Shown here piece after piece: positions 5,676 to 64,000 of a stretch of DNA of 64,000 nucleotides. The notes beneath the pieces are model-generated. The model was not told where the DNA came from and made no database searches. It saw only the letters and a program-made list of their open reading frames with translations. The number at the start of each line of letters is the position of its first letter. Within the stretch, counting starts at the first letter, position 1. A program made the translations under genes and the position numbers. This DNA is from an uncultured Victivallales bacterium (GTDB lineage Bacteria; Verrucomicrobiota; Lentisphaeria; Oligosphaerales; JABHEG01), in the NCBI GenBank assembly GCA_964607765.1, contig CAZSNT010000033.1, positions 3,955 to 67,954 of the forward strand, given 5' to 3'.

Positions 5676-5912
5676 ATGTCCGGAAAACGCCACCGCGAGC
5701 CCCCAACCGTTTTCCGGACATCCAGCACCGTCAACGGAGATGCCCACAGGCCCGAAGCATGTCCGGAAAACACCACCGTCTGCCCACCACCCGTTTTCCG
5801 GACGAGAAGAGAGAGGCGCAGAAGAGGAGACACGAGGACCAACACGACAGTGGAAGTGACGCAGGACCGGAAAACGGGTGCCACCGACGGGAAACCAGAC
5901 CGTTTTCCGGAC
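5676..5912. repeat. Array of three hairpin units built from inverted GTCCGGAAAAC / GTTTTCCGGAC arms
   Basis: Unit 1 is ATGTCCGGAAAACG 5676-5689 paired with CGTTTTCCGGACAT 5708-5721 (14-bp perfect arms, 18-nt loop). Unit 2 is 5761-5771 with 5793-5803 (21-nt loop). Unit 3 is GACCGGAAAACGG 5865-5877 with CCGTTTTCCGGAC 5900-5912 (one mismatch, 22-nt loop). All three loops contain CCACCG. Confidence 0.9.
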
Positions 5913-6010
5913 AGGCGGCAGAGCCCCTCTCAACACGTCCCCCCAGAAAAACGCCTGGGCCTGCCGCGGACGCGCGCGCCGCGGCGTTGCCGGAGCGTGT
6001 CCGGCCGCCT

Positions 6011-9409: not shown

Positions 9410-9420
9410 GTTTTCCGGTC
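9410..9420 (+). repeat. Solitary one-mismatch copy of the abundant motif (GTTTTCCGGTC)
   Basis: It lies in the divergent gap between the fucosidase start (9315) and the next gene start (9455). Its reverse complement is GACCGGAAAAC, the same variant seen at 5865, 30287 and 54894-54986. Confidence 0.7.
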
Positions 9421-11568: not shown

Positions 11569-12396
11569 TCACGCAGCGGCACGCCACGGCACGGCTGCCG
11601 CCTTGCGCAACGCCGTGCAGGTAGTGCGGATCCCGCACAAGCGCGACGCCCGCTCCACGACACGACGAATGGTCCGGGTCGACACCGGGCATGCGCGACG
11701 GGGTGATGGAAGCAGCCATGCGACCTCGGCCCGTTCATCTGCGGCAATTCCGAGCGGAATTGGCTCGGAGCTCTGCTTGTCGTCCGGGCGGGCGCGGTGC
11801 CCGTTCCGTCCGGCATGCAATGCCCCTTTCGGTGCGGCCACCATGCGCAATTGCCCCGGCCGGAGCTTGGTCTGGTTCAGCATGTCGATCACCAACCGGT
11901 CCCGCTCCCCCCTGCACGCCCCCCTCAGCAGACGCACCTCCTCCTCTGTGGCCGGCGCGCGTGGCGCCGGTCGCGGCGCGTGCTGTATCCCGACCGTGAT
12001 CCCCAGGCGGAGCAGTCGGTCAAAAACGGCACGCAGCGCACACAGATGCAGCCGCTGCGTGCCATATCCCAGGCCAGCCCTCCTCAGCTCTGCCAGATAC
12101 TCGACAACATCGTCGGCGGTCAACTCGCCCGGCTTCGGGCACCCGACACTCCGCAGGAAACGGGCAACGCAACTGACGTACTTGGCAGCAGTGCTCGCGG
12201 CATAACCCCTGTCGGTGAGAACATCCCGCAGCGTTCCCAGGTCTGATCCGGCATTCAGACCAACCCCATCGGGCTTCTCCCGGGCCATCCTGCGACGCTG
12301 TACGGTGTCCAGACACCACTCCATCACATCGAAGACCGATCGAGCCACCATCGCCGGCAGTCCCAGCCCCACGAAATCCCCGCCAGCGCCAACCAT
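11569..12396 (-). pseudogene. Tyrosine recombinase/integrase-like gene, C-terminally truncated and degenerate
   Basis: ATG 12396 lies 7 nt after AAGGAG. The N-terminal SAM-like core-binding region is present (YAASTAAKYVSCVARFLRSVG...DVVEYLAELRR...GTQRLHLCALRAVFD). A box I-like LRPGQLRMV and STRTIRRVVERASRLCGI are also present. The ORF then ends in TCTALRKAAAVPWRAAA, without the HxxR...GH...Y catalytic end. Confidence 0.6.
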
Positions 12397-12496
12397 CACC
12401 ACACTCCTTGCTTTTTTAGACTTCTCTTTATTAGTACGTTAACGCCGTGTCTCTCGTTGTCAAGCGCTCCCTATCGTTCCGCCCGCACCTGGTGCT

Positions 12497-12754
12497 GTTC
12501 TCCGGACAACAGCCCGGCCATCGCATCATCTGATGCCCGGATAGCGGGTGGAACCGTTCCCCTCGTCGTACTTGTTTTCCGGACGGCCGCGCAACGGTGA
12601 CGGGCAGCCCGCACCCAGAGGCGTGAGCGGATCGTATTTGCCGCCACACTCGTTTTCCGGACACGCGCAGTTCGTGAACCGTTGTCGGAGGCCGGTGCAG
12701 GACGTCCGGAAAACACGGAGTGGGCGGGTTGCCGGCGGGGTCTGTTTTCCGGAC
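12497..12754. repeat. Motif array: three direct copies at a 77-78 bp period followed by one inverted pair
   Basis: The direct copies are GTTCTCCGGAC 12497-12507 (one mismatch) and GTTTTCCGGAC 12574-12584 and 12652-12662. They are followed by GTCCGGAAAAC 12704-12714 paired with GTTTTCCGGAC 12744-12754 (29-nt spacer). The array sits in a 668-bp divergent gap next to the truncated recombinase. Confidence 0.85.
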
Positions 12755-13064: not shown

Positions 13065-16007
13065 ATGCGCATGCCACTGAGCGGGTCAGCGATCGTGCTG
13101 GCCGTATTCCCCGTCCTTGTCGCAGCCGAGACGACGAAGCCGCGGAACCTGGCTCGGGAGGCCACGATCACGGCGACGTCGGAGTACAACGATCAGTACG
13201 CGGCGCGGTTCGTTGCGGACGGCATCATCCCGGACGCAGGGAAGCGCAACAGCGTCGGCAAAGAATGGGCCGTGAAGGGCTCTACGCACAAGTCCGGGGC
13301 TGATCTGACCATGCAATGGCAGGAGCCGGTTCAGATCGCCCAGATTGTCTACTACGGCCGCAGTTCGTTTGCCGTGGAGGCATGGCGCGAGTGTGAGGTG
13401 TACCTGGATGGCGCCGACGCGCCGTCCACCAAAGCGAGCCTCAAACCCGGCCATGGTCCGCAGCGAGTGACACTCGAGCGCCCTGCGACGGCCGCCAAGC
13501 TGCGCCTCAAGTTCATCGGGCACCACAGTTGTGTCAATCCGGGTGCCGCCGAGATCGAGGTCTGTGCCGAGCCGCCGGCCGACACGGCGTTGGGCAAATT
13601 CCTGCCCATGCCACCCATGCACGGCGCCCACGGCGAACCGCCGGTTGTTGTCCCGGCCATCAAGGAGTCGCCGGAACTGGCTGAGAAGCTCCGCTCAGGC
13701 AAGCTGGGGTTTTCACGGTTGCTCCTGGTCCAGCGCCATGCCTATCGTATCAGCCATGTTTACGTGTACCACGTGGAGTGTTTCAAGCCCGGCGGCGGCA
13801 TCTACATCTTCACCCCGGACGAGAATGGGGGAAAGAAGGAGAGGATCTTTGATGCCGGTCAAGGCGAGGTCATGGACTGTGCCCTCTCCTACGACGGCAC
13901 GGAGATCCTGTTCAGCTACAAGAAGCGCCACATTGGCGGCCTGAACCATATGATCACGGAAACGGATGGGCACTACCAGGTATACCGGATGAGTCTGGTC
14001 GACCGGCAACCCGTACTGCTGACCAGCCACTACTCCAACAACTTCAACCCTTGCTGGCTGCCGGACGGCCGAATCGCATTCCTTTCCGATCGGAAGCTCT
14101 CGTTCGCTTACTGTTTCACCAGTTCGTCGCCTCTGCTCTACCGGATGGACCGGGACGGCTCCAACGTCTTCAAGCTCTCGCACGGCTACCTGAACGACTT
14201 CACCCCAAGCGTACTTAACAACGGCAAAATCATCTACAGTCGCTGGGAATATGTAGACCGCCCGGCCTGCCCTATCCAAAGCCTATGGACACTCAATCCG
14301 GACGGCACGCGGTCCGAGGGTTTTTTCGGCAACCGTGTGTTGGAGCCCGGCACGTTCATGGAGGCCCGCGCCATTGGCAGCACAGGCAAAGTGCTTTGCG
14401 TAATGACGGGGCACAACGGCTGCTGTCGCGGCGCTCTCGGGATCATCGATCCGTCCAAGGGCGCCAACGCCCAGGAAGGCATCACCAATATCACCCCGGA
14501 GATCCACGTTCCGCCCGTGACCGGCAGGCCCGGACTGAAAGGGAACGCGTTGGTGAACCGCGGCCCGTATGAGAACCCCTTCCCGGTGGACGAGACGTAT
14601 TTCCTTGTGTCGAAGCTCGGCACGATAGTCCTGCGCGACTATGCGCGGACAGAGTGTGCGGTTGTGGCGCGCCCGGAAGGCAAGATGGGCTTCTACTCGC
14701 CCATCCCGATCCGAGAGGCCGAGCCGCCCCCGGTCATTCCGTCGACGTTGCCGGAAGGCGAGCAGGAGCCGTGGGGCACGGTGCTGATGCAGGACGTCTA
14801 CAATGGCCTGACACCGGATGTGGAGCGCGGCGAGATCAAGCAGATCGCGGTTGTCGAAGAAGTGGAGAAAGGGGACTACGCCCCACACAAAGGGATTTTC
14901 GGTTTCCAGTTCCCGCTGGTGTCCTGTGGCGCCACGTACGCTGCCAAGAAGCTGTGGGGTTACGCCACGGTCGAGGAAGACGGTTCGGCTCACTTCAAAG
15001 TCCCATCAGAAATCCCCATCTACTTCCTGGCCCTCGACAGGGAGGGACGCGCCGTGCAGAGGATGCGCACGCTGACGCACTTCCAGCGCGGCGAGGAACA
15101 AAGCTGCATCGGCTGTCACGCCGAGCGCAATTACGCAACCCCAACCGAACGAAACACGCGTTCCGTTGCCGCGCGCCGCCCTCCGCAGGAGCTCGTTCCC
15201 CCGGAGTGGGGACGACGCAAGTTCGATTATTCCTCGATCGTGCAGCCGGTGTGGGACAAATACTGCATTTCGTGCCACAACCCGCGCAGTCAGACGAAAG
15301 GCATCGACCTGACTGGCGACAAGACAGACTTTTGGTGTGTCTCGTACGAGTACCTCGCGAGGAAGGGAACACACGGCGAGAGGAACCCGTTCCAGCACGG
15401 TGTGCGCTCTCTCGCCGATGTTGGACAGAACCCCTACGTGAAGTGGATCTCAACCATCAACGGGGCGGGTGAGAACATCCTGATGATCAAGCCCCGCACC
15501 TGGGGCGCATACCCGAGCAGGCTCACGAAAGTGATCATGACGGGACACCCTGACCGCTCGAGACGGAAGCGCTTCAACATGGACGCGACCTCAATGCGTC
15601 GGGTGTTCGCCTGGATGGACCTCAATGTGCCTTACTACAAAGACTCGAAGACCAACCACCCGAGTCAGCGCGGCAGCAGGATGATGCGACCACAAGATCT
15701 GGATAAGGTGCTTGAGGATGTACGCAAACGGCGCTGCGCGGAGTGCCACGAGAAGACGCCGCGCAAGTTCTACACGCGCATCACGAACATCGAAGAGAAC
15801 CAATTCCTCTCCGCGCCGTTAGCCACCTCGGCAGGCGGAACGCAGCGATGCGGAACGGCCGTTTTCCGGACAAAGGACGATCCCGACTACCAGGCCATTC
15901 TGAAGACGTTCGAGCCCATTACGAAACTGATGGCGACCCGCCCCCGCCTCGACTTCCCTGACGCCGTTTACGTCCCGCACAGCCAGGCTTGCCCTGTCCG
16001 GTACTGA
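13065..16007 (+). CDS. Exported multidomain protein: F5/8 type C-like domain, TolB/PD40-like beta-propeller region and a C-terminal region with three CxxCH motifs
   Basis: ORF 12720..16007, trimmed to ATG 13065, 8 nt after GGAGGT (MRMPLSGSAIVLAVFPVLVAAE signal). The N-terminus has ...FVADGIIPD...VQIAQIVYYGR...LRLKF. The middle has repeated ...LSYDGTEILFSY..., ...WLPDGRIAFLSDR... and ...LNNGKIIYSRWEY... strands. CIGCH is at 15105-15119, CISCH at 15264-15278 and CAECH at 15735-15749. The second (VQPVWDKYCISCHNP...KGIDLTGD) resembles the planctomycete cytochrome-c-like (PSCyt) domain. Confidence 0.7.
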   Translation: MRMPLSGSAIVLAVFPVLVAAETTKPRNLAREATITATSEYNDQYAARFVADGIIPDAGKRNSVGKEWAVKGSTHKSGADLTMQWQEPVQIAQIVYYGRSSFAVEAWRECEVYLDGADAPSTKASLKPGHGPQRVTLERPATAAKLRLKFIGHHSCVNPGAAEIEVCAEPPADTALGKFLPMPPMHGAHGEPPVVVPAIKESPELAEKLRSGKLGFSRLLLVQRHAYRISHVYVYHVECFKPGGGIYIFTPDENGGKKERIFDAGQGEVMDCALSYDGTEILFSYKKRHIGGLNHMITETDGHYQVYRMSLVDRQPVLLTSHYSNNFNPCWLPDGRIAFLSDRKLSFAYCFTSSSPLLYRMDRDGSNVFKLSHGYLNDFTPSVLNNGKIIYSRWEYVDRPACPIQSLWTLNPDGTRSEGFFGNRVLEPGTFMEARAIGSTGKVLCVMTGHNGCCRGALGIIDPSKGANAQEGITNITPEIHVPPVTGRPGLKGNALVNRGPYENPFPVDETYFLVSKLGTIVLRDYARTECAVVARPEGKMGFYSPIPIREAEPPPVIPSTLPEGEQEPWGTVLMQDVYNGLTPDVERGEIKQIAVVEEVEKGDYAPHKGIFGFQFPLVSCGATYAAKKLWGYATVEEDGSAHFKVPSEIPIYFLALDREGRAVQRMRTLTHFQRGEEQSCIGCHAERNYATPTERNTRSVAARRPPQELVPPEWGRRKFDYSSIVQPVWDKYCISCHNPRSQTKGIDLTGDKTDFWCVSYEYLARKGTHGERNPFQHGVRSLADVGQNPYVKWISTINGAGENILMIKPRTWGAYPSRLTKVIMTGHPDRSRRKRFNMDATSMRRVFAWMDLNVPYYKDSKTNHPSQRGSRMMRPQDLDKVLEDVRKRRCAECHEKTPRKFYTRITNIEENQFLSAPLATSAGGTQRCGTAVFRTKDDPDYQAILKTFEPITKLMATRPRLDFPDAVYVPHSQACPVRY

Positions 16008-16021: not shown

Positions 16022-16376
16022 CATTGGTCGTTGCGCTGCACGCGTCATTGGTCACTGGTCATTGGCGGGGTCGCGGCGAAGTCAAGCAGCAGGTGAGCCG
16101 GAAAACGTGTCTGCAGCAGGTGGGCCGGCATGCGCGGAGGGGGCTGAGATCGCACCAATGTTCTCGTTCCCACGACTACGTGTTTTCCGGACATCCCAGG
16201 CACGAACGGGGCAGTCTATTGGGATAGCTTCGCGGCGACGGCCAATGACCGAAAACAGATGACTCCGCCGCGGTGTTTTCCGGACGTTCCAGGCGAGAAC
16301 GAGGCAGGCTGACTGACTGGCGGCGCGAGGGCGACCAATGACCGAGGAGCGGCGCCCACCCTGGTGTTTTCCGGAC
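16022..16376. repeat. Composite repeat region: three ~90-bp tandem units each ending in GTGTTTTCCGGAC, plus long-range inverted CATTGGTC / GACCAATG boxes
   Basis: GTTTTCCGGAC occurs at 16182-16192, 16275-16285 and 16366-16376, at spacings of 93 and 91 bp. Each is preceded by a CCAATG box (16155, 16241, 16333). Decayed left arms are GAGCCGGAAAAC at 16096 and GACCGAAAAC at 16247. Upstream, CATTGGTC is at 16022 and 16046 and GGTCATTGGC at 16057-16066. GGTCATTGGC is the exact reverse complement of GCCAATGACC 16241-16250, and GTCATTGGTC 16044-16053 is that of GACCAATGAC 16333-16342. The region lies in a convergent gap. Confidence 0.85.
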
Positions 16377-21827: not shown

Positions 21828-21944
21828 TACCGGCGGGACGATCGACTGCAGTCGTCAGCAATCGGACGCAACCGACAGCGATCAACTTCCGGAGTAGGAC
21901 CAGCGACTTACGGTTTGCGACTGGCGGGTGCCGTGTTCCATGCC

Positions 21945-21979
21945 GTTTTCCGGACACCTGAACACCGAACACCGAACAC
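21945..21979 (+). repeat. GTTTTCCGGACA copy fused to a CYGAACA heptamer x3 repeat, just upstream of a sulfatase start
   Basis: GTTTTCCGGAC is at 21945-21955 and is followed by cctgaaca ccgaaca ccgaaca (21957-21978). The ATG of the next gene is at 21991. Confidence 0.8.
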
Positions 21980-21990
21980 TGGAAGCCACG

Positions 21991-23469: not shown

Positions 23470-23470
23470 C

Positions 23471-26265: not shown

Positions 26266-26401
26266 GCCGGGTCTTCCGCCGGAAGGCTTGAAGAATGGGG
26301 GAGAACCAAAGGACGATCCTAACCATCGGCAAGCAAGAGAATTCGACAGGAATACGTGCTGTCAACTTTGACAGAGCCTGAACGGGGGACAGGAGATGAT
26401 C

Positions 26402-40733: not shown

Positions 40734-40740
40734 TCTGCGA

Positions 40741-40769: not shown

Positions 40770-40779
40770 TGACGTGAGT

Positions 40780-40793: not shown

Positions 40794-40828
40794 TCTGGAT
40801 GCATGACAGGGCGGCAAGAGAACCAGCA

Positions 40829-50172: not shown

Positions 50173-51005
50173 ACACGTACCCAATCGATCTCCATGCCGG
50201 CCGGATAATGGGCGGGATTGGTCGGCCCCGAGCCGTTCACCCACTTGCCGCCGATCTGCATGGAGAGGATGAAGTAGAACGGCTGATCGAACGGCCACTG
50301 TTTCTCGCCTTTCGCCGGTACACGCGGGTAGGTGTGCGTGGGCTTGCCGTTCACCGTGAAGACGATCTTGTCCGCGTCCCACTCGCAACCGTACGTGTTC
50401 CAGTCATCACGCTTGATCCCGGCCGTGCCGCCCTTCCGCGGCGTGTTCGTCTTGTCGACCTTCACCGTGTACTCGGAATGCACGGTCTGATAGACCTTGT
50501 GATCGAAATTCAGGTGCTCCATCAGGTCGATCTCGCCGTTGGCCGGCCAGCCCTTGTCTGCTCCCATCATCCAGAGCGCCGGCCAGGCGCCCTGCGCGCT
50601 CTTGAAACGGGTACGGATCTGGACCTTGCCGTACTGGAAAGCGAACTTCCCCCTGCTCGTCACACCAGCCGTCAGGAAGGGGGCCGGGTCGTCATCCTGC
50701 CTGTCGTTGGCAATCCCGCGGAGGTGCAGCACACTGTTGCCGATCTGCAGCAGACGCGGATCAGCCGACATGGTGTTCTTCCAGTCTGGTTTCCCGCGTG
50801 TACAGCGCGTCCACTTGGAGCCGTCCAGCTTGTCTCCGGCAAACTCATCCTGCCACACCAGCTCCCAACCGGGCAGGCCGGCATCCCCTGATGCAGCGGC
50901 CGTTGATTCACTGTTCGCCCCGGCGCTACTGCCGGCATGCACACCTGAAGTAAGGACCACCCAAACCGTCGACATGACAACAATCCTCTCCATTGCCCTG
51001 CTCAT
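50145..51005 (-). CDS. GH16 glycoside hydrolase, exported
   Basis: It contains WELVWQDEF, WPALWMMG and the catalytic ExDxxE motif in NGEIDLMEH, and ends near ...DWVRVYR. ATG 51005 overlaps the upstream stop (ATGA). Confidence 0.85.
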   Translation of the reverse strand: MSRAMERIVVMSTVWVVLTSGVHAGSSAGANSESTAAASGDAGLPGWELVWQDEFAGDKLDGSKWTRCTRGKPDWKNTMSADPRLLQIGNSVLHLRGIANDRQDDDPAPFLTAGVTSRGKFAFQYGKVQIRTRFKSAQGAWPALWMMGADKGWPANGEIDLMEHLNFDHKVYQTVHSEYTVKVDKTNTPRKGGTAGIKRDDWNTYGCEWDADKIVFTVNGKPTHTYPRVPAKGEKQWPFDQPFYFILSMQIGGKWVNGSGPTNPAHYPAGMEIDWVRVYRREKASD

Positions 51006-52879
51006 TGTGACTGCTCCTTCGCCAACACAAAGACCTCGGCCGGGGACAGACCGCGAGCCCAGACCGACACCTCGTCGAGCGCCCCGACGAACGGCTTGAC
51101 CTGGAGTGCATCAAACGCCTTCCGGCTGTAGCCCAACCCGCCGAAACTCAGACGCACGGACTGGTTGAACCGCAACGTGCGATCCGCTCCCTCCAGACGC
51201 GTCTGCACGGGGTTGCCGTCCACGTACAGTATGACCTCCGACAGCCGACAGCCATCGGCCGGCATCACGGCCGCAAGATGGTGCCACTCGTCGTCATTGA
51301 GTCCTGCGGAGTCCGCAACAGCCCTCTGAGTCTTCGATACCTGCACTTCGGGTTTGCCACCGTTCAGGTTCAGGTTCAGGAAACCGTCAAGTTTGCCGCC
51401 CCAAATCGACCCGGTGTTGACGAGGACGTGATTCTGCGTGGACTTGGTCTTGAGCCACAGTGCGTAGGACACCGCACGGTCGCTGTGGTGCGGGCCCATG
51501 GCAAACACGGCCATGCGGCTGTCTTTGCCGAACTGCGCCGCTCGGCCGCGTACGCCGTCAACCGGCACCAACCCGCTGCAGAGCGCGCTGTAGTGCTTGC
51601 CGAACGCCCCCGCGTTCGGCGACACGCGCGTGCACTTCACCCCACGCAGCATGACGCCCGTGCCATCCTTTGTCTTGCCGCGCAAGCCCACGATCGGGTG
51701 CTGTTGCAGCGGCATGTCCTGGTCGAACGCAAAGTGGTACAGCCTGGCCGACGGATCCAGAAAGGACAGCTCCCCCGTGGCTTCGAACGCGGTATTGGCA
51801 CCAGTCTTGTCGATAGTCAGCTGGCCGATCCGCTTGTATTCGCCGTCGGACGGCTTGCTGCCCGTCTGATTGTGGCAGACGATGTCAATCCGATCGTCGG
51901 CAACGTCGACTGTCAGGAAGTTATTGAAGACATTGCCGCGACTGACGAGCTGGATGAGATCAGACTCGGGATCCTTGGTAACCGTGTTGGCATGGACTTC
52001 GCCCGCGAAGTAAATATCGACGCGGTGTTTGCGCAGCGTCTGCCAGAATTCACAGCTCGTGTCGCCGTCCATCATCATGCCGCTGCTGTTGACCTTGCGC
52101 ACCGGATGGATGACCGGTAGATGCGCCTGCACGAAGATGTGCCTGACACCGGCATCTTTGCGCGCCTCGCCCAGCACGTGCTCGAGCCACTCCAGGTGTT
52201 TTCCGGCCACCGTGCCTGTGACTGCGCCTTGGTCACCGATGACCTTGCTCGGGCCCTCCTGATGGAAAACATCGACAGTGACGAACAACACGTTCTTGTG
52301 GCGGACTGCGTAAGAGGTGGACTCGTAGGGCGTTCCCAGCGGGCGTGACGGAGCGCTGCCGATCGGTGCCCTGTACAGGAAACGTCCACCGTCCGAAGCG
52401 GTGTTGAACTCCTTTGCGAAGGCGGCTCGGAACTGGGGCTGGCAGCGGGCGACTGCGGACCCGGCCGGCCACGGGTTGTCACCGAGTTCGTGGTCGCCGA
52501 CAGCCATCAGGAGCATCGGGTAGCCGCCTTTGCGGAAGGACCTCACCATCCCCGAGTAGCACAGATGCCCCGCCTTCAGGATCGACTGTTCGGGAGACAG
52601 GCCAGGCTCGAACTTCTTGATGAACTTCGGCGTATCCCAGTGCCCGCCGTTGCTGTCGCCCGGCAGCAGAATCAGATCGCCGCCGAACGTCTCGCGCAAC
52701 ATGGTGACGTTGGCGACATCCTGTTCGACCGCCGCCGCGAACCAGTCAGGGTTCTTCGCGCTCTGCGTGTATTTCTCCGCCGAGTGCCAGTCGGCCAATG
52801 CAATGAACCGCCACGAGTCTCCGGCCCAAGCGTGGACACTGAACAGCAGGGCCAAGAACCACGGCATCTGTCTCGTCAT
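51002..52879 (-). CDS. Exported calcineurin-like metallophosphoesterase fused to a C-terminal LamG/concanavalin-like domain
   Basis: ORF 51002..53236, trimmed to ATG 52879 (MTRQMPWFLALLFSVHAWAG signal). The phosphoesterase motifs are ALADWHS, LLPGDSNGGHWD, AVGDHELGD, VQAHLP and AGEVHAN. The C-terminus ...DEWHHLAAV...LYVDGNPV...FVGALDEVSVWARGLSPAEV is LamG-like. Confidence 0.7.
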   Translation of the reverse strand: MTRQMPWFLALLFSVHAWAGDSWRFIALADWHSAEKYTQSAKNPDWFAAAVEQDVANVTMLRETFGGDLILLPGDSNGGHWDTPKFIKKFEPGLSPEQSILKAGHLCYSGMVRSFRKGGYPMLLMAVGDHELGDNPWPAGSAVARCQPQFRAAFAKEFNTASDGGRFLYRAPIGSAPSRPLGTPYESTSYAVRHKNVLFVTVDVFHQEGPSKVIGDQGAVTGTVAGKHLEWLEHVLGEARKDAGVRHIFVQAHLPVIHPVRKVNSSGMMMDGDTSCEFWQTLRKHRVDIYFAGEVHANTVTKDPESDLIQLVSRGNVFNNFLTVDVADDRIDIVCHNQTGSKPSDGEYKRIGQLTIDKTGANTAFEATGELSFLDPSARLYHFAFDQDMPLQQHPIVGLRGKTKDGTGVMLRGVKCTRVSPNAGAFGKHYSALCSGLVPVDGVRGRAAQFGKDSRMAVFAMGPHHSDRAVSYALWLKTKSTQNHVLVNTGSIWGGKLDGFLNLNLNGGKPEVQVSKTQRAVADSAGLNDDEWHHLAAVMPADGCRLSEVILYVDGNPVQTRLEGADRTLRFNQSVRLSFGGLGYSRKAFDALQVKPFVGALDEVSVWARGLSPAEVFVLAKEQSQ

Positions 52880-52919
52880 TCTCACGGAGCTCTCCTTGTT
52901 GGTCGCTGGGGTTCTCCCC

Positions 52920-54776
52920 TCATCTCCCCGATCGACTGCCCGCCTCTGCCGCGCGGAGTTCATACATGCACGCGCCAATCCGACGGGCGGCCTCGACCGT
53001 TTCCCGGTACGGCGTATCGCAAATGTCCACAAAGCCGATCTGGTAGTTCTCGCCGTCACCCCGCCCCGTGACGCTTTGCTCCCGGTACTGGAACCAGTGG
53101 GCCCCGACAATATGCGGGTGCTTGAGCGCCTGAGCGAGGTAGTGTTCGTAGGCGTAGCCGCGTTGCCGTTGATTGGCCACGCCCCGCAGCCCGGTGTGCA
53201 GCATGCCGCGGTCGAGCGCCCCAAAGTGGAATTCACCGATGATCAGCGGCACGTCAACGCCCTCGAGCATGCGCAGATCGGACGGCGAGAAGCGGTACCG
53301 GTTGACGCTGAGAACATCGCAATACCTGACTGCGGCCGCGACTATATGCCGTTTGTTCCCGTAAGGCTGGTCGTGGCCGTGCAGGCGGCTGCCCAGGTAG
53401 AGCTTGTGCGGCGCGACCTTCCTGACTTCTTCCCGGACCGTTCGGTAGTAGAGATCAGCATCCATCTTGCCGCGCCACTTGATTTCGTTGTCGACAAAAT
53501 AGCCGATGCACCAGGGATCTTCCGCGCTCCTGCCCTTCTCCGCGAGCAGGCGTTTGTGAAGGAGCTCTCTCAGCTTCTGCGGACTCCGCAAGAGCCCTTC
53601 CAGCGTGTCTGAACCCCAGCCCGCGTAGTGGATGGCCACGACATAGGGTGTCTTTCTGAGTTCGCAGATCGCCGGGTCGGACCAGTTGGCGATGGTGTTC
53701 ATTCCCCAGCTTCGGAGGCGCTGATGGGCCGCTTCGCTCGCTTCCGTTTCCCACTGTTCACCGTACTTCACGGAGAGATTGGCTTTGGCGAAGTCCACGT
53801 GCCCACGCTCGTGGAACGACGCAGGGATGCGCTCGAAATAGTGCTCCCGTTCGTGAACGCGCGTTCCCGCCCGGAAGTGAACGCCGGTGACGCCGTGCGA
53901 CCAGAACAAGCAGCCTTCGGGATCGACCAGCCACCACATGCCGTCACGCTTCTCGGTGCGGAAGTGCCCGGTCGCGGCCAGCTTCGGTCCCCCCAGCCAC
54001 CCGCCGTACCGGCTTCGGTCACCGGGGCCCGGATGCCGCTGCCGGTCCTCCTCCTCCCGGCGACGAGCCGCTGCCAGGTCGGACCTGGCAGTGATTTTTC
54101 CGGGCCAAGACGCGTGCTTGAACTGCCCGAATGCATCCACAAACGGGAAGAAAGCCTGCTCGGCTTCAGCGGGAAGAGGCGCGTACCTGCCCACGCCGCG
54201 AACACCCGCAATCTGGACGCTCTGTCCCACGGAGACGCCGTCCAGGTCACGGATGAGCAACTCTCTCACACGCGCCGCGTCGAACTCCGTCCAGTGTGAC
54301 AAGTGTCCGCCGGGCAGGCCGCGCATGCCGGTGAACATGTCTTTGCGCTGATCGGGGACCTCTTTCCGCAGGACATGGATCAGCATCGTGCAGGTCTCGC
54401 CGGCTGGCACATGCAGGAAACTGTTGACCCACTTGCTGTCCCCCAGACTCCCGAGAAGCGTGACGGGTTCGGCACCGACATTGCGGATGTCGACCGCAAC
54501 AGCCACGCAGGCGCTCGCGTCCCAGGCCCCATCGGCCGGCCGGATTCCGACCCCGCCCCCCGGCTCCCTGAACGTCACCCTCAGTTCACTGTCGCTGGCG
54601 CACTCCGCGCCAAACGCCCTGACCCGGCATCCGTCCTTCCCCGGCTGCAGCAGCGTCCGGCTCGAAGCCCGGGCGCCGCAGAGCCCGACGTGCTGCCCCC
54701 CCGCACATTCGGCCATCGCCGCACACATGAGCAGTCCTCTCACTAGCAGCCATTGTACTTCCATCCGTCTCAGCAT
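52920..54776 (-). CDS. Exported clan GH-A (TIM-barrel) glycoside hydrolase with an N-terminal beta-sandwich region; family uncertain (GH50-like by memory)
   Basis: The start is probably ATG 54776 or 54764 (MLRRMEVQWLLVRGLLMCAAMA). FVDNEIKW (an NE acid/base-type motif) and LIIGEFHFGA (a nucleophile-type motif) have the spacing expected of clan GH-A. AHWFQYREQSVTGRGDGENYQIGFVD is the tail block. Confidence 0.55.
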   Translation of the reverse strand: MLRRMEVQWLLVRGLLMCAAMAECAGGQHVGLCGARASSRTLLQPGKDGCRVRAFGAECASDSELRVTFREPGGGVGIRPADGAWDASACVAVAVDIRNVGAEPVTLLGSLGDSKWVNSFLHVPAGETCTMLIHVLRKEVPDQRKDMFTGMRGLPGGHLSHWTEFDAARVRELLIRDLDGVSVGQSVQIAGVRGVGRYAPLPAEAEQAFFPFVDAFGQFKHASWPGKITARSDLAAARRREEEDRQRHPGPGDRSRYGGWLGGPKLAATGHFRTEKRDGMWWLVDPEGCLFWSHGVTGVHFRAGTRVHEREHYFERIPASFHERGHVDFAKANLSVKYGEQWETEASEAAHQRLRSWGMNTIANWSDPAICELRKTPYVVAIHYAGWGSDTLEGLLRSPQKLRELLHKRLLAEKGRSAEDPWCIGYFVDNEIKWRGKMDADLYYRTVREEVRKVAPHKLYLGSRLHGHDQPYGNKRHIVAAAVRYCDVLSVNRYRFSPSDLRMLEGVDVPLIIGEFHFGALDRGMLHTGLRGVANQRQRGYAYEHYLAQALKHPHIVGAHWFQYREQSVTGRGDGENYQIGFVDICDTPYRETVEAARRIGACMYELRAAEAGSRSGR

Positions 54777-54893
54777 ACGTCCGATTCCCGTCTGATTCGA
54801 GCACGGTCGAGCAAGAGGCAGACGAACTGCCGACACCTACAATAGCAGGTGCGACGCCCGTTGTCAGCGCAACCGAGCGAGCACGCACCCCGT

Positions 54894-55114
54894 GACCGGA
54901 AAACACCACCAACACCACGACGACACCACCGACGACCGGAAAACACCCACCGACGACCGGAAAACAGCCACCCACGACCGGAAAACGCCGCCACGCAGCC
55001 CAGCCCCCGTGCCGGACGAGGATCGGCCTGCCGGCGCAGCTGTTTTCCGGACATCTCGCCCCTGGCGCAGCTGTTTTCCGGACATCTCGACCCTGTCGCC
55101 GCTGTTTTCCGGAC
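54894..55114. repeat. Motif array: four direct GACCGGAAAAC copies facing three direct GTTTTCCGGAC copies
   Basis: GACCGGAAAAC is at 54894, 54934, 54955 and 54976 (spacing 40, 21, 21 bp), each followed by a CCACC-like tract. GTTTTCCGGAC is at 55042, 55073 and 55104 within a 31-bp tandem unit GCAGCTGTTTTCCGGACATCTCG. The array lies in the divergent gap between starts 54776 (-) and 55234 (+). Confidence 0.9.
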
Positions 55115-58150: not shown

Positions 58151-60544
58151 ATGACGGATATCGTACTCGACACTGTCTCGCCGCGCACCGTTCAACTCCT
58201 GACCCGTGACTGGCTGTTCCGCCCCGGGCCGTTGAGGAACGCTCACGAAGCGTTCTGCGACGACGGCGATTGGGAGCCGGTACAGCTTCCGCATGACGCG
58301 TCGGTGGGCGGGGAATTCGACTACGGACAATCCGGCGGCAACAACGGTTGGCTGCCGTTCGGCCAGGGCGCGTACCGCAAGCACTTCGCACTCCCGCCTG
58401 AAGCTGAAGGCAAACGTGTTCTGATCGAATTCGAGGGCGTCTATCGTGCGGCCGAAGTCTGGGTTAACGGGCAGTACCTGGGCCGGCATTTGAACGGTTA
58501 CCTGGGTTTCGAACACGACCTGACCGAACACGTTGTCTGCGGCGGCGGGAACGTGCTCACCGTATACTACGACAACCGCGTGAAAGGCACGTCGCGCTGG
58601 TACACGGGTGAGGGCATTTACCGCGATGTGCGCCTGAAGATTGTCGAGCCGCTGCACGTTCCGCTGCACGGGACAACCGTGACGACGCCTGTGATCACCG
58701 CCGAGCGCGCGCTGGTCTGCGTCGAGACAGAGGTCGCGAACCTGGGCGCGAAGCGGCGCACGTGCCGGCTCGCCACGGCGCTCATCGGGCCGACGGGCGA
58801 AGAAGCGGCACATACCGCGGCCATCGCCCCCGTGGCCGCGGGCGAGTGCCGCACGTTCCGGCAGCAGATCGAGGTCCCCTGCCCCGCCCTGTGGGACCTG
58901 GCCAATCCGAATCTCTACACGGCCGTCTCCACCGTGCGGTGCGGCGACCGGGACGTCGATGTTTACACAACCAGGTTCGGTATTCGTGAGATCCGCATGA
59001 CCCCCGAACGCGGTCTGCTCCTGAACGGGCAGAAAGTCGTGGCGAAGGGCGGCAACCTGCACCACGACCTGGGTTGCCTGGGCAGTGCCGTTCTGAAGAG
59101 CGAATGCGAACGGCACATTGCCGAGCTCAAAGCCATCGGCTGTAACTCCTTCCGGCTCAGCCACAACCCGCACGCACCCGCGTTACTGGACGCCTGCGAT
59201 GAGATGGGCATCCTCATCTTCAACGAGGCCTACGACAAGTGGACGTCTCAGTTCTACGGCGGTGAGGCATCGTTCGAGAGCCAATGGGAAGCCGACTTGG
59301 AGCACTTCATCCGCCGTGACCGGAACCACCCTTGCGTCTACATCTGGAGCATGGGCAACGAGGTGCTCAAACAGCAGGGGCGGCATGAGCCAGAGTTCGA
59401 GACGCGCGACGCGGCGGCCGACTATGGCGTGGGGCTCGTTCGACGCATGGTTGCGCTCACGCGTCGTCTTGATCCCAGCCGCAAAGTGACCGTTGGGCTG
59501 TTCCCGGCCCGGGAGAAGTTCATCAAGGAGTGGGAGCACTGGGACGACGTCGACACGTTCAGGGACTCAGCGCCGGCCGAGATGGCGTTCGAGGTCGACG
59601 TGGTGAGCTGGAACTACACCGAGAACATGTTCGCCATCGACCACGCGAACTACCCGCAGTTCATGTTCATCGCGTCGGAAAGCGCGGGTAACATCGGGTT
59701 CGGCGCCCGCACGCCGTCCTGGACGGAGATTGACACGGACTACGTGATTGGCCACTACCACTGGTCGGGCTACGATTACCTGGGCGAATCCGCGAAGCCG
59801 ACCAAAGTCTGGGGGCGTGCTCTCATCGACGTGTCCGGGTGGGTCACACCGCTCGGCCGCTACTACGAGAGCTGCTACCGGGAAGATCCAAGCGTTCACA
59901 TCATGGTCTACGAAACCGACGCGGAGCAGTGGGAGCGGTTCAACGCGCGAGGGCGCGGCCGTTGGCACTGGTACCCGATGGCCGACCACTGGACCTGGGG
60001 TGACCGGAAAGAGGCCAAGCTCAGTACGTTCACGAACGCCGAAGAAGTCGAGCTCTTCCTGAACGGGCGGTCTCTCGGCATCCAACGATTCGCTGATTGC
60101 CGAGGCAGGATCATGGACTGGGAACTGCCTTACGAGCCGGGCACGGTGACAGCTGTCGCACGCACGGGCGGCAAGCAGGTAGCCGAGCACACGCTGGCCA
60201 CCGCGGGCGCACCGGTCGGCTTGCGTCTGACCCCGCACAAATCGGCACTTCGCGCCGACGGGCTGGATACTGTCTGCATCGAAGCCGCTGTTGTCGATGC
60301 TGACGGTCGGCTTGTTCCCGTCTGCCGCGTTCCGGTCAGCTTCCGGGTCGAGGGAGCAGGCACGAACGCGGGGGTGGCGAATGGCGACATCGTCAGCGAC
60401 GAGCGCTGGCAGGGCGATTCACGCTCAACGTGGTACGGCCGCTGCATCCTGCTCGTGCGTGCGGGGCACGATGCGGGCCGGGTGACGGTCACGGCGGGAA
60501 CCGAGGGATTACCTGCCGGCACGTGCACGCTGCCTGCAGTGTGA
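58151..60544 (+). CDS. GH2 glycoside hydrolase (beta-galactosidase/beta-glucuronidase-like), no signal peptide
   Basis: The preferred start is ATG 58151. It contains LTRDWLFRPG, VLIEFEGVYRAAEVWVNGQYLG, NSFRLSHNPHAPALLDACDEMGILIFNEA and HPCVYIWSMGNEV, the GH2 sugar-binding and TIM-barrel blocks. Confidence 0.85.
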   Translation: MTDIVLDTVSPRTVQLLTRDWLFRPGPLRNAHEAFCDDGDWEPVQLPHDASVGGEFDYGQSGGNNGWLPFGQGAYRKHFALPPEAEGKRVLIEFEGVYRAAEVWVNGQYLGRHLNGYLGFEHDLTEHVVCGGGNVLTVYYDNRVKGTSRWYTGEGIYRDVRLKIVEPLHVPLHGTTVTTPVITAERALVCVETEVANLGAKRRTCRLATALIGPTGEEAAHTAAIAPVAAGECRTFRQQIEVPCPALWDLANPNLYTAVSTVRCGDRDVDVYTTRFGIREIRMTPERGLLLNGQKVVAKGGNLHHDLGCLGSAVLKSECERHIAELKAIGCNSFRLSHNPHAPALLDACDEMGILIFNEAYDKWTSQFYGGEASFESQWEADLEHFIRRDRNHPCVYIWSMGNEVLKQQGRHEPEFETRDAAADYGVGLVRRMVALTRRLDPSRKVTVGLFPAREKFIKEWEHWDDVDTFRDSAPAEMAFEVDVVSWNYTENMFAIDHANYPQFMFIASESAGNIGFGARTPSWTEIDTDYVIGHYHWSGYDYLGESAKPTKVWGRALIDVSGWVTPLGRYYESCYREDPSVHIMVYETDAEQWERFNARGRGRWHWYPMADHWTWGDRKEAKLSTFTNAEEVELFLNGRSLGIQRFADCRGRIMDWELPYEPGTVTAVARTGGKQVAEHTLATAGAPVGLRLTPHKSALRADGLDTVCIEAAVVDADGRLVPVCRVPVSFRVEGAGTNAGVANGDIVSDERWQGDSRSTWYGRCILLVRAGHDAGRVTVTAGTEGLPAGTCTLPAV

Positions 60545-60659
60545 GACAGCGAAGAACCGGTGTGCCGTTGGCATCCCGCGCCTCACCATCTGCCACCCCC
60601 GTTGGTGTCCAGTGCGCCGGGCGTCATCGGCAGCTCCTTTCAACACGGCGACACCCCCC

Positions 60660-61529
60660 TCACTGCGTTCCCTCTTCTCTCTCCCCGGTCTCCTGGGCCG
60701 TGTTGACCACAGGGGGACGTGCGGCCAGTTGGGTCATGGTGATGCGCAGGTTCGGGTGCTGCTGAAGGAGCGACCCGGGAAACTCCTGCGTGACCGGCCC
60801 CAGGAACGCGCGCCGCCAGAGCCCGGCGTGCCAGTTGCGCATGAACGTGCAATGGAACGCCTTCGATTTGAGCATCTCGTACATGCCGATGCTCACCGCG
60901 CGCGACGGCAACACCTCGTAGTTGCCGTTGACGCCGCCCATGAGCATCTGCGCCGCTGACATGGGGCTGACCGTCAGCTTCCGCGTCTTGCTGTTCCTGA
61001 ACGAGTCCAAGTCGTCCGGCTCGCCCAACATGGCCGGCGGATCGTTGAACGCGACGTGTCCGGTGATGCCGAACCCGGCCCAGCAGATGTCGGCTCCCCC
61101 GATCCGGTCGATCAGCCTCGTGACCTCCTCCGGCGCAGCGGGGTCGGGGAAGATGACGTTCTCGGGCAGCGGCCGCTTGTCCGGATCGAGCCGGGCGAAG
61201 AACGTCTCCTCCATGAACCGGCGGAAGCTGAGCGGGTGGCTGACGGGGATGAGTTGGTCGTTCTCGTCGAGATACTCGTCCATATTGACAGTGCGCAGAT
61301 TGCGGCAGGACAAGCCACGGCGAACGACTTCCTCGGCAAAGTACGCGTAGTCGAGCGGCCCCACGGGGGCAATGACCGTCAGCAGTTCGTCCCGCTCCGC
61401 TTTGGCCGCCAGAAGGTCTGCGAACTCCGCTGCGACGCGACGATTGAGCTCGCGGGTATCCGGGACCACCGTGACTCTCTCTCTGAGGCCCCCCGGCAGA
61501 TGATCAACGGCGACACCGTAGATGCTCAT
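60660..61529 (-). CDS. Glucosamine-6-phosphate deaminase / 6-phosphogluconolactonase (NagB-like) family protein
   Basis: This is the last 289 aa of track ORF 60660..62288. The start is ATG 61529, or alternatively 61544. It contains LLTVIAPVGPLDYAYF, LRTVNMDEY and GITGHVAFNDP, characteristic of the NagB/Pgl fold. Confidence 0.7.
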   Translation of the reverse strand: MSIYGVAVDHLPGGLRERVTVVPDTRELNRRVAAEFADLLAAKAERDELLTVIAPVGPLDYAYFAEEVVRRGLSCRNLRTVNMDEYLDENDQLIPVSHPLSFRRFMEETFFARLDPDKRPLPENVIFPDPAAPEEVTRLIDRIGGADICWAGFGITGHVAFNDPPAMLGEPDDLDSFRNSKTRKLTVSPMSAAQMLMGGVNGNYEVLPSRAVSIGMYEMLKSKAFHCTFMRNWHAGLWRRAFLGPVTQEFPGSLLQQHPNLRITMTQLAARPPVVNTAQETGEREEGTQ

Positions 61530-61620
61530 GTCATGGATCTCCATTCCCGAGGTCCTCGGCGGCAGGGGACTGACCGTCAGAGTGCCTGGTCCGTGCACGG
61601 CGAATGCCGTAGCTCGGGTC

Positions 61621-63057
61621 TCACTTCTTCTTGGGCTTGTCGGCGCTGGCGGGAATGCTCCAGCCGGCGGCGCCCTCCACCAGCGGCGCCTCCTTCTCAG
61701 GCAGGCCTTTCGCAAGCCTCGCTTTGGTCGCTGCATGGGCGGGGTCGTCTGCCAGGTTGTGCCACTCGTCGGGATCGTCCCGATGTGAGTAGAGCTCCTC
61801 GCCGCCGTCGAAGTACCGGGTATACCGCCAGCGCCGACTGCGCACGGTGTAGTTTCCGCGGCCCCAGGAGCAGACGGATGGCCGCGGTACAGGTACGCTC
61901 GGGTCTCTGAGTTGCGGCACCAGGCTGAATCCGTCGGTGCCTTCACGCGGTGTGAGCCCGGCCAGTTCGGCCAGAGTCGGGTAGATATTGATGAGCGACA
62001 CGCCGTCGCTGACGGTGCGTCCTCTGATCGGCTTCTTCTCGCGGGCGTCCCAGATGATGAACGGAACGCGCGTGGTCTCTTCCCAGAGCGCGAACTTGCG
62101 GAAATGCCGTTTCTCGCCCATCCCGTATCCGTGGTCCGACCACAGCACAACGACCGTGTTGTCCGCGTAGGGGCTGGCCGCCAGCGCGTCCAGCACGCGT
62201 CCGACGTTGAAGTCTGCCCACGAAATACAGGCCAGGTACGCTCGTCGAACTTTTGTCCAGGCCTTGTCCTTTTTGAATCGTTCGTCATCCCTGATCTTAG
62301 CCATGGATCGCCCGACCCACGGGATGTCGTCGTGGTCGTCGGGATTGATGCGGGGCGGCTTCACATCGTGGGGGTAGAGATCGAAGAACTGCTTGGGGCA
62401 GACGAACGGGAGGTGGGGTCTGACAATACCCACGGCGAGGAAGAACGGCCTGTCGTGTTGGCGCGAAAGGACGTCCACCCCGTAAGATGCAACCTGGTAG
62501 TCGGGGTGGCTCCCGAGCGGGCTTGTGGTGGGGCAGAACGACATTCTCCACTTCTTGTTCACCTGGTACCCGGCTTCCACATCAAGCTCCAGCTTTGCAG
62601 GCGTGGGCTTGTGATAGTCCGTCCATTCCTCCGGGGCCGCCTTTGACCTGTGATGGATCTTACCGGCGCCAAAGGTCACGTAGCCATTCTCTTTGAGGAA
62701 CTGTGCGAGCGGAACGTAGGGTGTCTCCTTTCTCAGCTTGCTGTGGAAACCGTCCTTGTCGTAGAAGGCGTAGAGCCCGGAGTTGAACGGTTCGACGCCA
62801 TACAGCAGCGCGTTGCGGCTGGGCGAGCACCCGGGCGCGGGACAGTGCGCGTTGGTGAAGTTCACGCCCTTCTCGGCCAGCTTGTCCATGTTCGGAGTGA
62901 CGGCTTGCGGGTGGCCGCCCAGAAAGCCCGTCCAGTCGTTCATGTCATCGATGGCAATGAAGAGGATGTTGGGTTTCGCGGCGCCCTGGACCAGCAGGGG
63001 CAGCAATGCAGCAAGCACCAAGACCGCGACGATGAAGGCTGAGTGTCCGCTTCTCAC
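61621..63057 (-). CDS. Cys-type sulfatase, exported, short polybasic C-terminus
   Basis: The start is at GTG 63057, overlapping the upstream stop (GTGA): (V)RSGHSAFIVAVLVLAALLPLLVQGAAKPNILFIAIDDMND. The signature is PGCSPSRNALLYG and it contains VVLWSDHGY. The protein ends ...SADKPKKK. Confidence 0.85.
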   Translation of the reverse strand: MRSGHSAFIVAVLVLAALLPLLVQGAAKPNILFIAIDDMNDWTGFLGGHPQAVTPNMDKLAEKGVNFTNAHCPAPGCSPSRNALLYGVEPFNSGLYAFYDKDGFHSKLRKETPYVPLAQFLKENGYVTFGAGKIHHRSKAAPEEWTDYHKPTPAKLELDVEAGYQVNKKWRMSFCPTTSPLGSHPDYQVASYGVDVLSRQHDRPFFLAVGIVRPHLPFVCPKQFFDLYPHDVKPPRINPDDHDDIPWVGRSMAKIRDDERFKKDKAWTKVRRAYLACISWADFNVGRVLDALAASPYADNTVVVLWSDHGYGMGEKRHFRKFALWEETTRVPFIIWDAREKKPIRGRTVSDGVSLINIYPTLAELAGLTPREGTDGFSLVPQLRDPSVPVPRPSVCSWGRGNYTVRSRRWRYTRYFDGGEELYSHRDDPDEWHNLADDPAHAATKARLAKGLPEKEAPLVEGAAGWSIPASADKPKKK

Positions 63058-64000
63058 TTTTTGGTGCCTTTCCTGTTTCGTTTCATTCTCTTCTGCCACT
63101 CGGGTGTGTGGATAAGCCCGAGGAACCGCGGTTCGATCAGTGTTGCATCCCAGCGCGTGCGAACCTGTTCCAGCATGGCTACGACTTCGGGTCTGGAAGC
63201 GGCCAGGTTCTTTGTCTCGGCAATGTCCGCGGACAGGTCGTAGAGCTGCGGCGGGCCGCCCTTCCACGGAATGACCAGTTTGTGGTTGTCCCGCCGCACG
63301 GCGAACCGGCTCTGGTCAAACTTGCGGATAGTGATCGTGCGGTGCGCCGGGTCCGCACTCTCTCCGGTCAGGAACGGGATCAGGTTGACACCGTCCAGAT
63401 AGCCCTTGCGTGCAGCACTCGCACCCGCCACTTCCACAGCAGTGGCACAGATATCCAGCGAGATAACGGGATGGTCATAGGTGACGCCTTGCGGGATTGT
63501 CCCGGGCCACTGCACGGCGAACGGCACGCGGATTCCCCCCTCCCAGACGTCGGATTTGCCGCCGCGAAGCGGCCGGTTGTTCGACCCGTTCTTGCCGACG
63601 GGGCCGCCGTTGTCGGAGAGGAAGAACAGCAGTGTCTGATCGGTCAGTTCGAGTTCGCCCAACTTGGCCAGGAGCCGGCCGACGCCGTCGTCCAGGGCGC
63701 TGACCATGGCCGCGTAGGTCTTGCGCTTCCTGTCTTTGATGTCCGGAAAACGCGCCAGGTACTCCTCGGTCGCCTGCAGCGGGCCGTGCGGCGCATTGTA
63801 GGAGAGGAAGAGGAAGAAGGGCTTGTCTCTGTTACGCTCGACAAAGCGCACGGCTTCGTCCGAAAACTCGTCCGTCAGGTACTTGCTGATCTTGACCGGC
63901 TCGTGGTCGCGCAGGATCCAGGTCCGATAGCTCTCGTTTTCGTTCCTTGCGGCGTAGCTGTCTCTGATGGTCAGCTCCTTCGGGAAGTACTGATGGCCGC
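63054..64000 (-). CDS. Cys-type sulfatase, C-terminal ~315 aa (gene continues past the right edge), polybasic C-terminus
   Basis: The frame stays open to position 64000 (...HQYFPKELTIRDSYAARNENESYRTWILRDHEPVKISKYLTDEFSDEAVRFVERNRDKPFFLFLSYNAPH...). It contains FFLSDNGG and ends ...EWQKRMKRNRKGTKK. Confidence 0.85.
   Translation of the reverse strand, partial: GHQYFPKELTIRDSYAARNENESYRTWILRDHEPVKISKYLTDEFSDEAVRFVERNRDKPFFLFLSYNAPHGPLQATEEYLARFPDIKDRKRKTYAAMVSALDDGVGRLLAKLGELELTDQTLLFFLSDNGGPVGKNGSNNRPLRGGKSDVWEGGIRVPFAVQWPGTIPQGVTYDHPVISLDICATAVEVAGASAARKGYLDGVNLIPFLTGESADPAHRTITIRKFDQSRFAVRRDNHKLVIPWKGGPPQLYDLSADIAETKNLAASRPEVVAMLEQVRTRWDATLIEPRFLGLIHTPEWQKRMKRNRKGTKK

Follow-up and report, generated by a model that had tools for sequence, protein, structure and literature searches.

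A hyperabundant DNA word and its candidate integrase-fold reader in a Lentisphaeria genome

A 64-kb stretch of an uncultured Victivallales genome (64,000 nucleotides, positions 3,955 to 67,954 of contig CAZSNT010000033.1; hereafter the window) is dotted with an 11-nucleotide word, GTTTTCCGGAC, to which an original prediction made from the letters of this DNA had drawn attention and which we call W1. By Pfam annotation the window is a polysaccharide-degradation region of 63% GC, whose genes encode about 14 sulfatases, glycoside hydrolases (GH32, GH38, GH2 and GH16 enzymes), ThuA, GFO/IDH/MocA oxidoreductases and a LacI regulator. Among these genes, and directly adjoining one of the W1 arrays, lies that of a 275-aa protein of tyrosine-recombinase fold, W1BP, the candidate binder of the word.

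The word W1 and its sites in the window

Exact W1 was counted 26 times in the window (19 copies on the plus and 7 on the minus strand), where dinucleotide-preserving shuffles give an expectation of 0.03, an excess of about 1000-fold; allowing up to one mismatch raises the count to 37, against 1.25 expected. Nineteen copies extend to the 12-mer GTTTTCCGGACA. These recounts agree with the 26 and 19 copies first reported, and the coordinates given then were right except for minus-strand position 33306, which is the end of a copy spanning 33296-33306; the one-mismatch sites listed also hold, with one further copy to be added at 52198 (GTTTTCCGGCC). Copies are thus spaced at about 0.6 per kb, or one per ~2 kb, with very few degenerate variants: the core GTTTTCCGG is found 37 times and is followed by AC in 26 cases, by TC in nine and by CC in one, and beyond the A-, T- and C-types so named by position 10 the window holds one single-substitution variant of W1 and no more. 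The motif can be written Y-GTTTTCCGG-[A/T/C]-C-(A), its 5' neighbor being a pyrimidine throughout and its 3' neighbor A in 19 of the 26 copies; aligned window copies revealed no flank conservation beyond these. Exact and variant copies together read 21 times on the plus and 15 times on the minus strand, and GC skew has no clear switch across the window. Polar words of the Chi or FtsK-orienting (KOPS) type have 5-8 nt and are strongly skewed with the direction of replication; W1 has 11-13 nt, and its orientation in the window is mixed. A full-text literature search for the word returned primers only.

Four intergenic arrays hold 21 of the copies, the remainder being solitary. The sites, with the W1BP gene and its expression signals, are as follows:

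5678-5912: array of six copies that form three convergent inverted pairs (5678-/5709+, 5761-/5793+, 5865-/5902+), with a minus-strand gene on either side
9410-9420, plus strand: solitary T-type copy in a short divergent intergenic region
11569-12396, minus strand: W1BP gene; its 275-aa product, the candidate word binder, has the tyrosine-recombinase fold and lacks the segment with the catalytic tyrosine
12404-12463, minus strand: W1BP promoter and ribosome-binding site (-35 TTGACA at 12463-12458, -10 TAACGT at 12441-12436, AAGGAG at 12409-12404)
12497-12754: home array on the upstream side of the W1BP promoter; copies at 12497 (one mismatch), 12574+, 12652+, 12704- and 12744+
15861-15871, plus strand: copy encoding VFRT in the gene of an HZS_alpha/F5_F8 protein
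16096-16376, plus strand: array of three direct copies (16182, 16275, 16366; ~92-bp period) between convergent gene ends
21945-21955, plus strand: copy in the leader of sulfatase gene 21928-23469 or at its 5' end, with a CCGAACA microsatellite after it
23126-24846: four copies inside two sulfatase genes, at 23126- (PEN), 23653+ (MFSGL), 24028+ (AFSGQ) and 24836- (DRKT, T-type)
26110-27391, plus strand: three copies encoding VFRT, at 26110 in the gene of an unknown protein, at 27080 in a ThuA domain and at 27381 at the start of the next sulfatase
30287-30297, minus strand: T-type copy preceding by ~10 nt the GGAG..ATG with which a sulfatase gene starts
33296-33306, minus strand: copy encoding VRKT, in the 3' end of the gene of sulfatase 31922-33400
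40681-41078, minus strand: one copy between genes, at 40681, and a T-type copy inside a gene, at 41068 (LTGKH, sulfatase signature region)
52198-52208, plus strand: C-type variant GTTTTCCGGCC in minus-strand gene 51002-53236; this variant is also frequent in arrays of the Zodletone genome described below
54894-55114: divergent intergenic array, one half with four T-type copies (54894, 54934, 54955, 54976; 21-bp period) facing the minus-strand gene, the other with three A-type copies (55042, 55073, 55104; 31-bp period) facing the plus-strand gene
63741-63751, minus strand: copy in minus-strand sulfatase gene 63054-63998 (FPD)

The home-array copy nearest the W1BP promoter is not a canonical W1; at 12497-12510 it forms a 14-bp quasi-palindrome, GTTCTCCGGACAAC, which could be a dimer-type operator. 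A two-mismatch copy opens the direct array at 16096 (minus strand), with a further decayed partner, read by eye, near 16249, and a promoter-like CTGACA-17-TATTGT (54867-54839, minus strand) abuts the divergent array at 54894-55114. Promoter and terminator scans of three arrays gave one promoter-like site and no terminator-like hairpins, and at the gathering threshold Rfam found no RNA family in the window, which likewise has no tRNAs. Folding yields hairpins from the inverted words with z-scores of -2 to -3. A reading that puts RNA or a cruciform first was dropped, given these weak z-scores and because paired arms are mismatched at position 10, both in arrays of the Zodletone genome and at two sites in the window.

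The possibility raised at the outset that all copies belong to one mobile element with conserved ends is rejected: when the inverted-pair units were aligned the two words were invariant and the loops and flanks unrelated. The spacing between inverted copies runs from 9 to 64 bp, with no fixed 6-8-bp spacer.

W1 is kept at the DNA level inside genes as well as in the intergenic arrays. At least eight exact copies lie within Pfam-supported coding domains (sulfatase, ThuA), and copies inside genes are found in either orientation and in each of the three frames, as VFRT, FSG, [D/V]RKT, TGKH, PEN or FPD; the frames and peptides read at first (VFRT, FSG, FPD, PEN, VRK) are right by the translations of the open reading frames (ORFs). 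Synonymous-codon resampling, which kept every protein sequence and took the longest ORFs as its set, produced 0.40 in-ORF copies (at most 4 in 400 runs), against the 15 seen (11 exact, 4 T-variants), of which some five lie near a provisional 5' end and may precede the true start codon. The codons that spell W1 are rare ones (GTT 0.11, TTT 0.12, ACA 0.15, GGA 0.14). From this excess and these rare codons it follows that the constraint acts on DNA; together with the spread over frames, the resampling supports the early claim of a DNA word as opposed to a peptide.

Two of the in-gene copies, at 23653 and 41068, fall in opposite orientations on the CxPSR...(S/T)G signature region of sulfatases (MFSGL encoded by GTTTTCCGGAC, LTGKH by GACCGGAAAAC), so that the signature peptide makes W1 cheap to encode at these two places; sulfatase peptide conservation was nonetheless rejected as the full cause, since it leaves the rare codons and the other frames unexplained. 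An 82%-identical sulfatase orthologue (L151) shares the copies at 23653 and 24028, position for position; an 85%-identical one (L150) does not. In-gene copies are likewise present in the relatives' loci L158 and L156. A tendency of in-gene copies to cluster upstream of the next gene, assessed by hand from gene coordinates, was rejected as not significant (5 of 11 within 350 bp).

Some other features of the window may be recorded here. The microsatellite that directly follows the copy at 21945 is a tandem repeat of CCGAACA (x4, 21950-21979), and another tandem repeat, TCGACAGGCA (x4.6, 38165-38210), lies between two genes. A YhcG/DUF1016 gene of the PD-(D/E)XK nuclease family (35150-36085, plus strand) breaks the long run of sulfatase genes. 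The longest ORFs 51002-53236 and 52920-54836, and likewise 31922-33400 and 33294-34949, overlap by 100-300 nt, and 60544-61621 is a gap in the gene map; several start codons of the map are therefore provisional.

W1BP and the linkage of its gene to W1 arrays

W1BP has the two-lobed tyrosine-recombinase fold. Its sole Pfam match is Phage_int_SAM_4 (PF13495), the N-terminal SAM-like core-binding domain of integrases, at residues 56-130, and a profile of its family matched the archaeal XerA (4a8e, E 3.7e-9) and IntI4 in the PDB. NCBIfam gave sub-threshold Xer and IntI matches (integron-integrase score 33.6 vs. a cut-off of 265), and Foldseek matched the model of W1BP to PDB tyrosine recombinases, with weak tail matches to YopR and SroF (probability 0.33-0.54). 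PADLOC returned nothing for W1BP. The XerA alignment ends at residue 230 of 292, with 'TA[LI]RK' of W1BP set against 'HQLRH'; every family member ends ~10 residues past the 'LRK' that corresponds to the XerA 'LRH', before the nucleophile tyrosine, and the C-terminus of the homologues reads ...TCTA[LI]RKA..VPWRA.A. The Arg-I position is M or L in two of the seven members and Arg-II is G in one of the seven. As judged from these alignments, W1BP stops short of the nucleophile segment, its arginine positions have decayed and the catalytic residues have been lost.

The family is small. Among 5.8 billion proteins a word-indexed search turned up seven members, and an exhaustive HMMER search 23 clusters at E<1e-30, about 13 of them with proteins of 269-281 aa; longer relatives carry low-complexity tails in place of the tyrosine-bearing segment. 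No W1BP relatives were found in viral, phage and plasmid collections, and the genes neighboring that of W1BP are chromosomal ones for carbohydrate-active enzymes.

In the window the home array lies 100-360 bp upstream of the W1BP gene. Across homologous loci a W1 array was found upstream of the W1BP gene in six of the seven with evaluable upstream DNA (protein identity 40-63%):

L129: 56% identity to the window protein, a co-linear orthologue; three W1 copies upstream of a TTGACA-17-TATAGT promoter; found by the W1 pair scan alone
L156/L157: 56%; seven copies upstream (three exact, four with one mismatch) and one other in 20.8 kb
L158: 46%; four copies upstream and 16 more in 20.8 kb, including a nine-copy array and in-gene copies
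L138/L142/L144: 58% to P0247; W1 is clustered only once in 14.6 kb, 220-300 bp upstream of the gene; picked up by the word scan and nothing else
L162 (Zodletone genome): 40%; three W1 pairs 230-460 bp upstream; genome found independently through its W1 arrays
L161: 55%; no W1 in 680 bp upstream, the one exception
L155 and L160: 63% and 52%; on the upstream side the contigs reach 125 and 49 bp beyond the gene, which puts both outside the count of seven

The arrays occupy the upstream side only, save that L155, its upstream part cut by the contig end, has three copies downstream. A near-consensus TTGACA-16/17-TAnnnT promoter is present at all W1BP loci and a strong ribosome-binding site at most. 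The genes around W1BP differ in every genome and the array spacers are not conserved; given these differing neighbors, the conserved unit consists of array, promoter and W1BP gene. In the L156 and L138 loci W1 is almost confined to this upstream array.

The nearest public relatives of the window are metagenome-assembled genomes (MAGs) of Lentisphaerae/Lentisphaeria, and a scan of one genome per species had among the matches listed the Lentisphaeria MAG Zod_Metabat.847 (GC 69%); the pattern of that scan, with 18 specified bases, was too loose and drew in many unrelated hairpins, so that the taxonomic range is under-sampled. In this Zodletone MAG there are many 67-77-bp tandem arrays in which the orientation of W1 alternates; one arm is of the A-type and the other of the T- or C-type, and hence the two are non-complementary at position 10. 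Its arrays flank housekeeping genes (SHMT/RpiB, an aminoacyl-tRNA synthetase, TauE), for which reason we rejected W1 as the site of a local regulator of the polysaccharide locus. In metagenomes 29 loci matched a strict inverted pair, many of them unrelated hairpin families such as a TARA set; L129, L135, and L138 with its near-identical copies have the second over-represented word described below or the W1BP gene in common with the relatives of the window, and the metagenome loci L143 and L148 carry W1 arrays. The W1 pair had no match in viral, phage and plasmid collections. Tandem arrays reach 15 copies (one-mismatch copies included) with periods of 21-93 bp, and W1 is common to several genomes of GC 60-69%; by extrapolation from the loci fetched, some Lentisphaeria lineages appear to have amplified the word across the genome. 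In a 75-85%-identical relative (L001 and L150) the syntenic DNA has no W1, and the absence of the word from L150 indicates a patchy expansion.

Three observations adjoin these. Eight contigs start or stop within or beside W1 arrays (L004, L006, L031, L129, L143, L148, L155 and L160), so that arrays evidently break the short-read assemblies of these MAGs. In L143 a putative IS3-type transposase gene (304-1505, minus strand; OrfA/OrfB with a frameshift, from ORF translations) adjoins a five-copy W1 array, into or beside which it may have inserted. A second word is over-represented in the window, the 13-bp near-palindrome TGCGGA[C/G]TCCGCA, with five exact and four one-mismatch copies vs. 0.24 expected; its sites (23289, 23556, 23893, 24623, 25999, 46844, 46970, 51305 and 53578) are all in coding sequence and in three frames, and it recurs at orthologous and other positions in the W1-free L001 and L150 and also in L151, L129, L135 and L138.

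What W1 may be

We consider W1 to be, on balance, probably the recognition element of the small integrase-derived DNA-binding family W1BP, of which the product of 11569-12396 (minus strand) is the member in the window; it is their co-location alone that points to binding of the one by the other. Sites for a global DNA-binding protein had been among the alternatives listed in the original prediction, and this is the one that we now favor, with a candidate protein encoded in the window and its gene linked to arrays. A tyrosine-recombinase monomer clamps one binding arm of 11-13 bp, as established for Cre, Xer and lambda Int. One W1BP monomer would clamp one W1 in the same way, which would explain an asymmetric word of this length. 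The lack of both a fixed 6-8-bp spacer and a nucleophile suggests that W1BP, deprived of its tyrosine, would bind and not recombine. The conserved upstream array suggests that W1BP regulates its own gene, and the strong promoter that the protein is abundant; its role may be genome-wide, architectural or of the repressor type, as the in-gene copies and the dispersed arrays suggest for those lineages in which W1 has expanded (this window, L158 and the Zodletone MAG). In such lineages tandem duplication could have raised the number of sites locally in spacers, and point substitutions at codon positions where the word is cheap could have added those in genes.

Several points weigh against this reading. 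A repressor or architectural role alone leaves the exact copies inside coding sequences unexplained, as it does the near-absence of degenerate copies, which is more typical of uptake sequences. The locus L161 has its W1BP gene and no array. L150, which for one gene is the closest relative (85% aa identity), has no W1 in 11.6 kb, and the AlphaFold2 model of W1BP, built from an alignment of seven sequences, is of moderate confidence (pLDDT 67.7).

The first rival reading is a DNA uptake signal, the analogy favored in the original prediction, for which there is no direct support. Competence uptake of W1-bearing DNA, followed by recombination, would then drive the density of W1 in genes and spacers, as with the DNA uptake sequences (DUS) and uptake signal sequences (USS), which are likewise exact words of 10-12 nt, about one per kb, shared by related species and found in genes in all frames, in spacers and as inverted pairs. 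W1 resembles them in being a long exact word at ~0.6 per kb with very few degenerate variants, in its presence at codon-cheap places in all reading frames, in both orientations (21 plus, 15 minus) and as inverted pairs in spacers, and in being common to several genomes of GC 60-69%. An uptake drive does not, however, predict an array-gene unit conserved in six of seven loci, nor that W1 should be almost confined to that unit in L156 and L138; DUS/USS do not form tandem arrays of up to 15 copies with 21-93-bp periods, and those words have no linked gene for a cytoplasmic binding protein, whereas W1 has both the long arrays and the linked gene. We know of no uptake signal tied to one cytoplasmic DNA-binding gene. 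A Pfam scan of the proteins of the 64-kb window found no competence machinery, and a search for literature on uptake sequences in bacteria of the Planctomycetes-Verrucomicrobia-Chlamydiae (PVC) group found nothing relevant, transformation in the clade being undocumented in the papers searched. W1 is thus most likely, of the two, a docking site of W1BP as the loci suggest, and we regard the uptake signal as improbable. We give about the same low credence to the suggestion that some other global factor binds W1, the W1BP gene being its conserved and heavily regulated target: co-location cannot separate binder from target, and the array-less L161 speaks for this reading too, but where W1 is rare its sole cluster is at the W1BP gene, as is typical of an autoregulated DNA-binding protein, and the length and asymmetry of the word fit the binding arm of a recombinase.

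The repeats could also be of a kind with repetitive extragenic palindromic (REP) sequences, bacterial interspersed mosaic elements (BIME) or REPINs, copied by a recombinase in trans, with W1BP a degenerate remnant. Like REP/BIME repeats with their REP-associated tyrosine transposases (RAYT), W1 forms intergenic clusters of alternating orientation that can fold into hairpins, are patchy among relatives, tend to break assemblies and have a linked single-copy gene that descends from a recombinase or transposase. REPs, in contrast, are extragenic palindromes of 20-40 nt and flank the gene of an active HUH enzyme on both sides; extragenic confinement, a palindromic unit with conserved surroundings and a linked HUH RAYT gene are all absent from W1, a non-palindromic 11-mer that also occurs in genes, with arrays on one side of a linked gene whose product has the lambda-Int fold, appears inactive from its sequence and is no HUH/RAYT enzyme. 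Copies in intact coding domains arose by substitution, not insertion, flanks and loops are unconserved, and paired arms differ at position 10 in the Zodletone arrays and at two window sites, so that this explanation strikes us as slightly less probable again than the two just considered; the REP or MITE (miniature inverted-repeat transposable element) family proposed in the original prediction is in this respect unsupported. Very unlikely, in our estimate, are attC-like or other recombination sites for an active integron- or Xer-type partner encoded elsewhere, even though XerA and the integron integrase are the nearest sequence families of W1BP and the inverted ...AAAAC-N-GTTTT... pairs, with their unpaired position, resemble a folded attC. 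There are no gene cassettes between the sites, the IntI match falls below its cut-off, W1 (GGAAAAC / GTTTTCC) departs from the attC consensus RYYYAAC/GTTRRRY, the 9-64-bp spacing does not suit, and solitary in-gene copies would be senseless as recombination sites. The link to methylation or restriction that had been suspected in the embedded TCCGGA fares worst: a by-product of a methyltransferase or of repair acting on TCCGGA/CCGG has the palindrome within A-type W1 in its favor, but TCCGGA occurs 104 times on both strands together vs. 26 exact copies of W1, the T- and C-types break the palindrome and are conserved all the same, and the repair biases known to us concern 4-5-mers rather than 11-mers, which makes it the least probable of all.

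Precedents and meaning

Under the docking-site reading, the closest documented precedent by analogy appears to be MrpR (YopR) with the element SPBRE of the Bacillus phage SPβ. MrpR has the tyrosine-recombinase fold, has lost recombination and binds the 15-bp SPBRE, which is scattered over many intergenic and promoter regions of SPβ, with ~10 sites in the prophage (PMC10516654). W1BP shares the fold, with the loss of catalytic residues seen in silico where that of activity is the observation for MrpR. It differs in being truncated before the tyrosine region and, MrpR being a phage master repressor, in being chromosomal, with no phage or plasmid relatives found; W1, for its part, occurs every ~2 kb, in tandem arrays and in coding sequences, as against ~10 sites for SPBRE. 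No sequence homology between W1BP and MrpR was detectable, the weak tail matches of Foldseek being the only link.

The arrangement of gene and motifs has parallels of its own. In TnpI/IRS (Tn4430, Tn5401) and IntI/attI the recombinase gene is directly preceded by its own 12-14-bp motifs, direct or inverted, which regulate it. W1BP resembles these systems in the motif cluster directly upstream of a recombinase-type gene, but TnpI and IntI are active enzymes with a single site cluster in each element, whereas W1BP appears to have no catalytic residues and W1 is dispersed, by extrapolation genome-wide. ParB and Noc are also encoded beside their own sites, with more copies along the chromosome and an architectural role, and a palindromized W1 (TGTTTTCCGGAAAACA) resembles, as read from the sequence, parS and the Noc-binding site (NBS); these are 14-16-bp palindromes in tens of copies, not thousands, and not arrayed, and the fold of ParB and Noc differs from that of W1BP.

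A bolder proposal, which we put forward as a possibility and hold to be rather unlikely, is that W1BP and W1 form a chromosome-wide 'genome word' system in Lentisphaeria, with thousands of exact sites actively maintained, coding sequences included, and a function new for the fold, be it self-DNA marking, chromosome structuring or a bias of recombination or uptake; a signature like that of DUS or Chi would then arise through a cytoplasmic reader of integrase fold.

Very abundant exact words are rare in bacterial genomes, and the understood cases, DUS/USS, Chi, KOPS and REP, each revealed a basic DNA transaction. W1 comes with a concrete candidate reader, one of an uncharacterized family of integrase-fold proteins that lack the tyrosine and make up only a few dozen clusters in public data. 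To our knowledge, almost no gene-regulatory or chromosome-organizing factors have been described in the PVC group. If W1BP does bind W1, the domestication of recombinases into DNA-binding factors would no longer stop at MrpR, a phage repressor, but would take in a system of the PVC group that is chromosomal and possibly of nucleoid scale.

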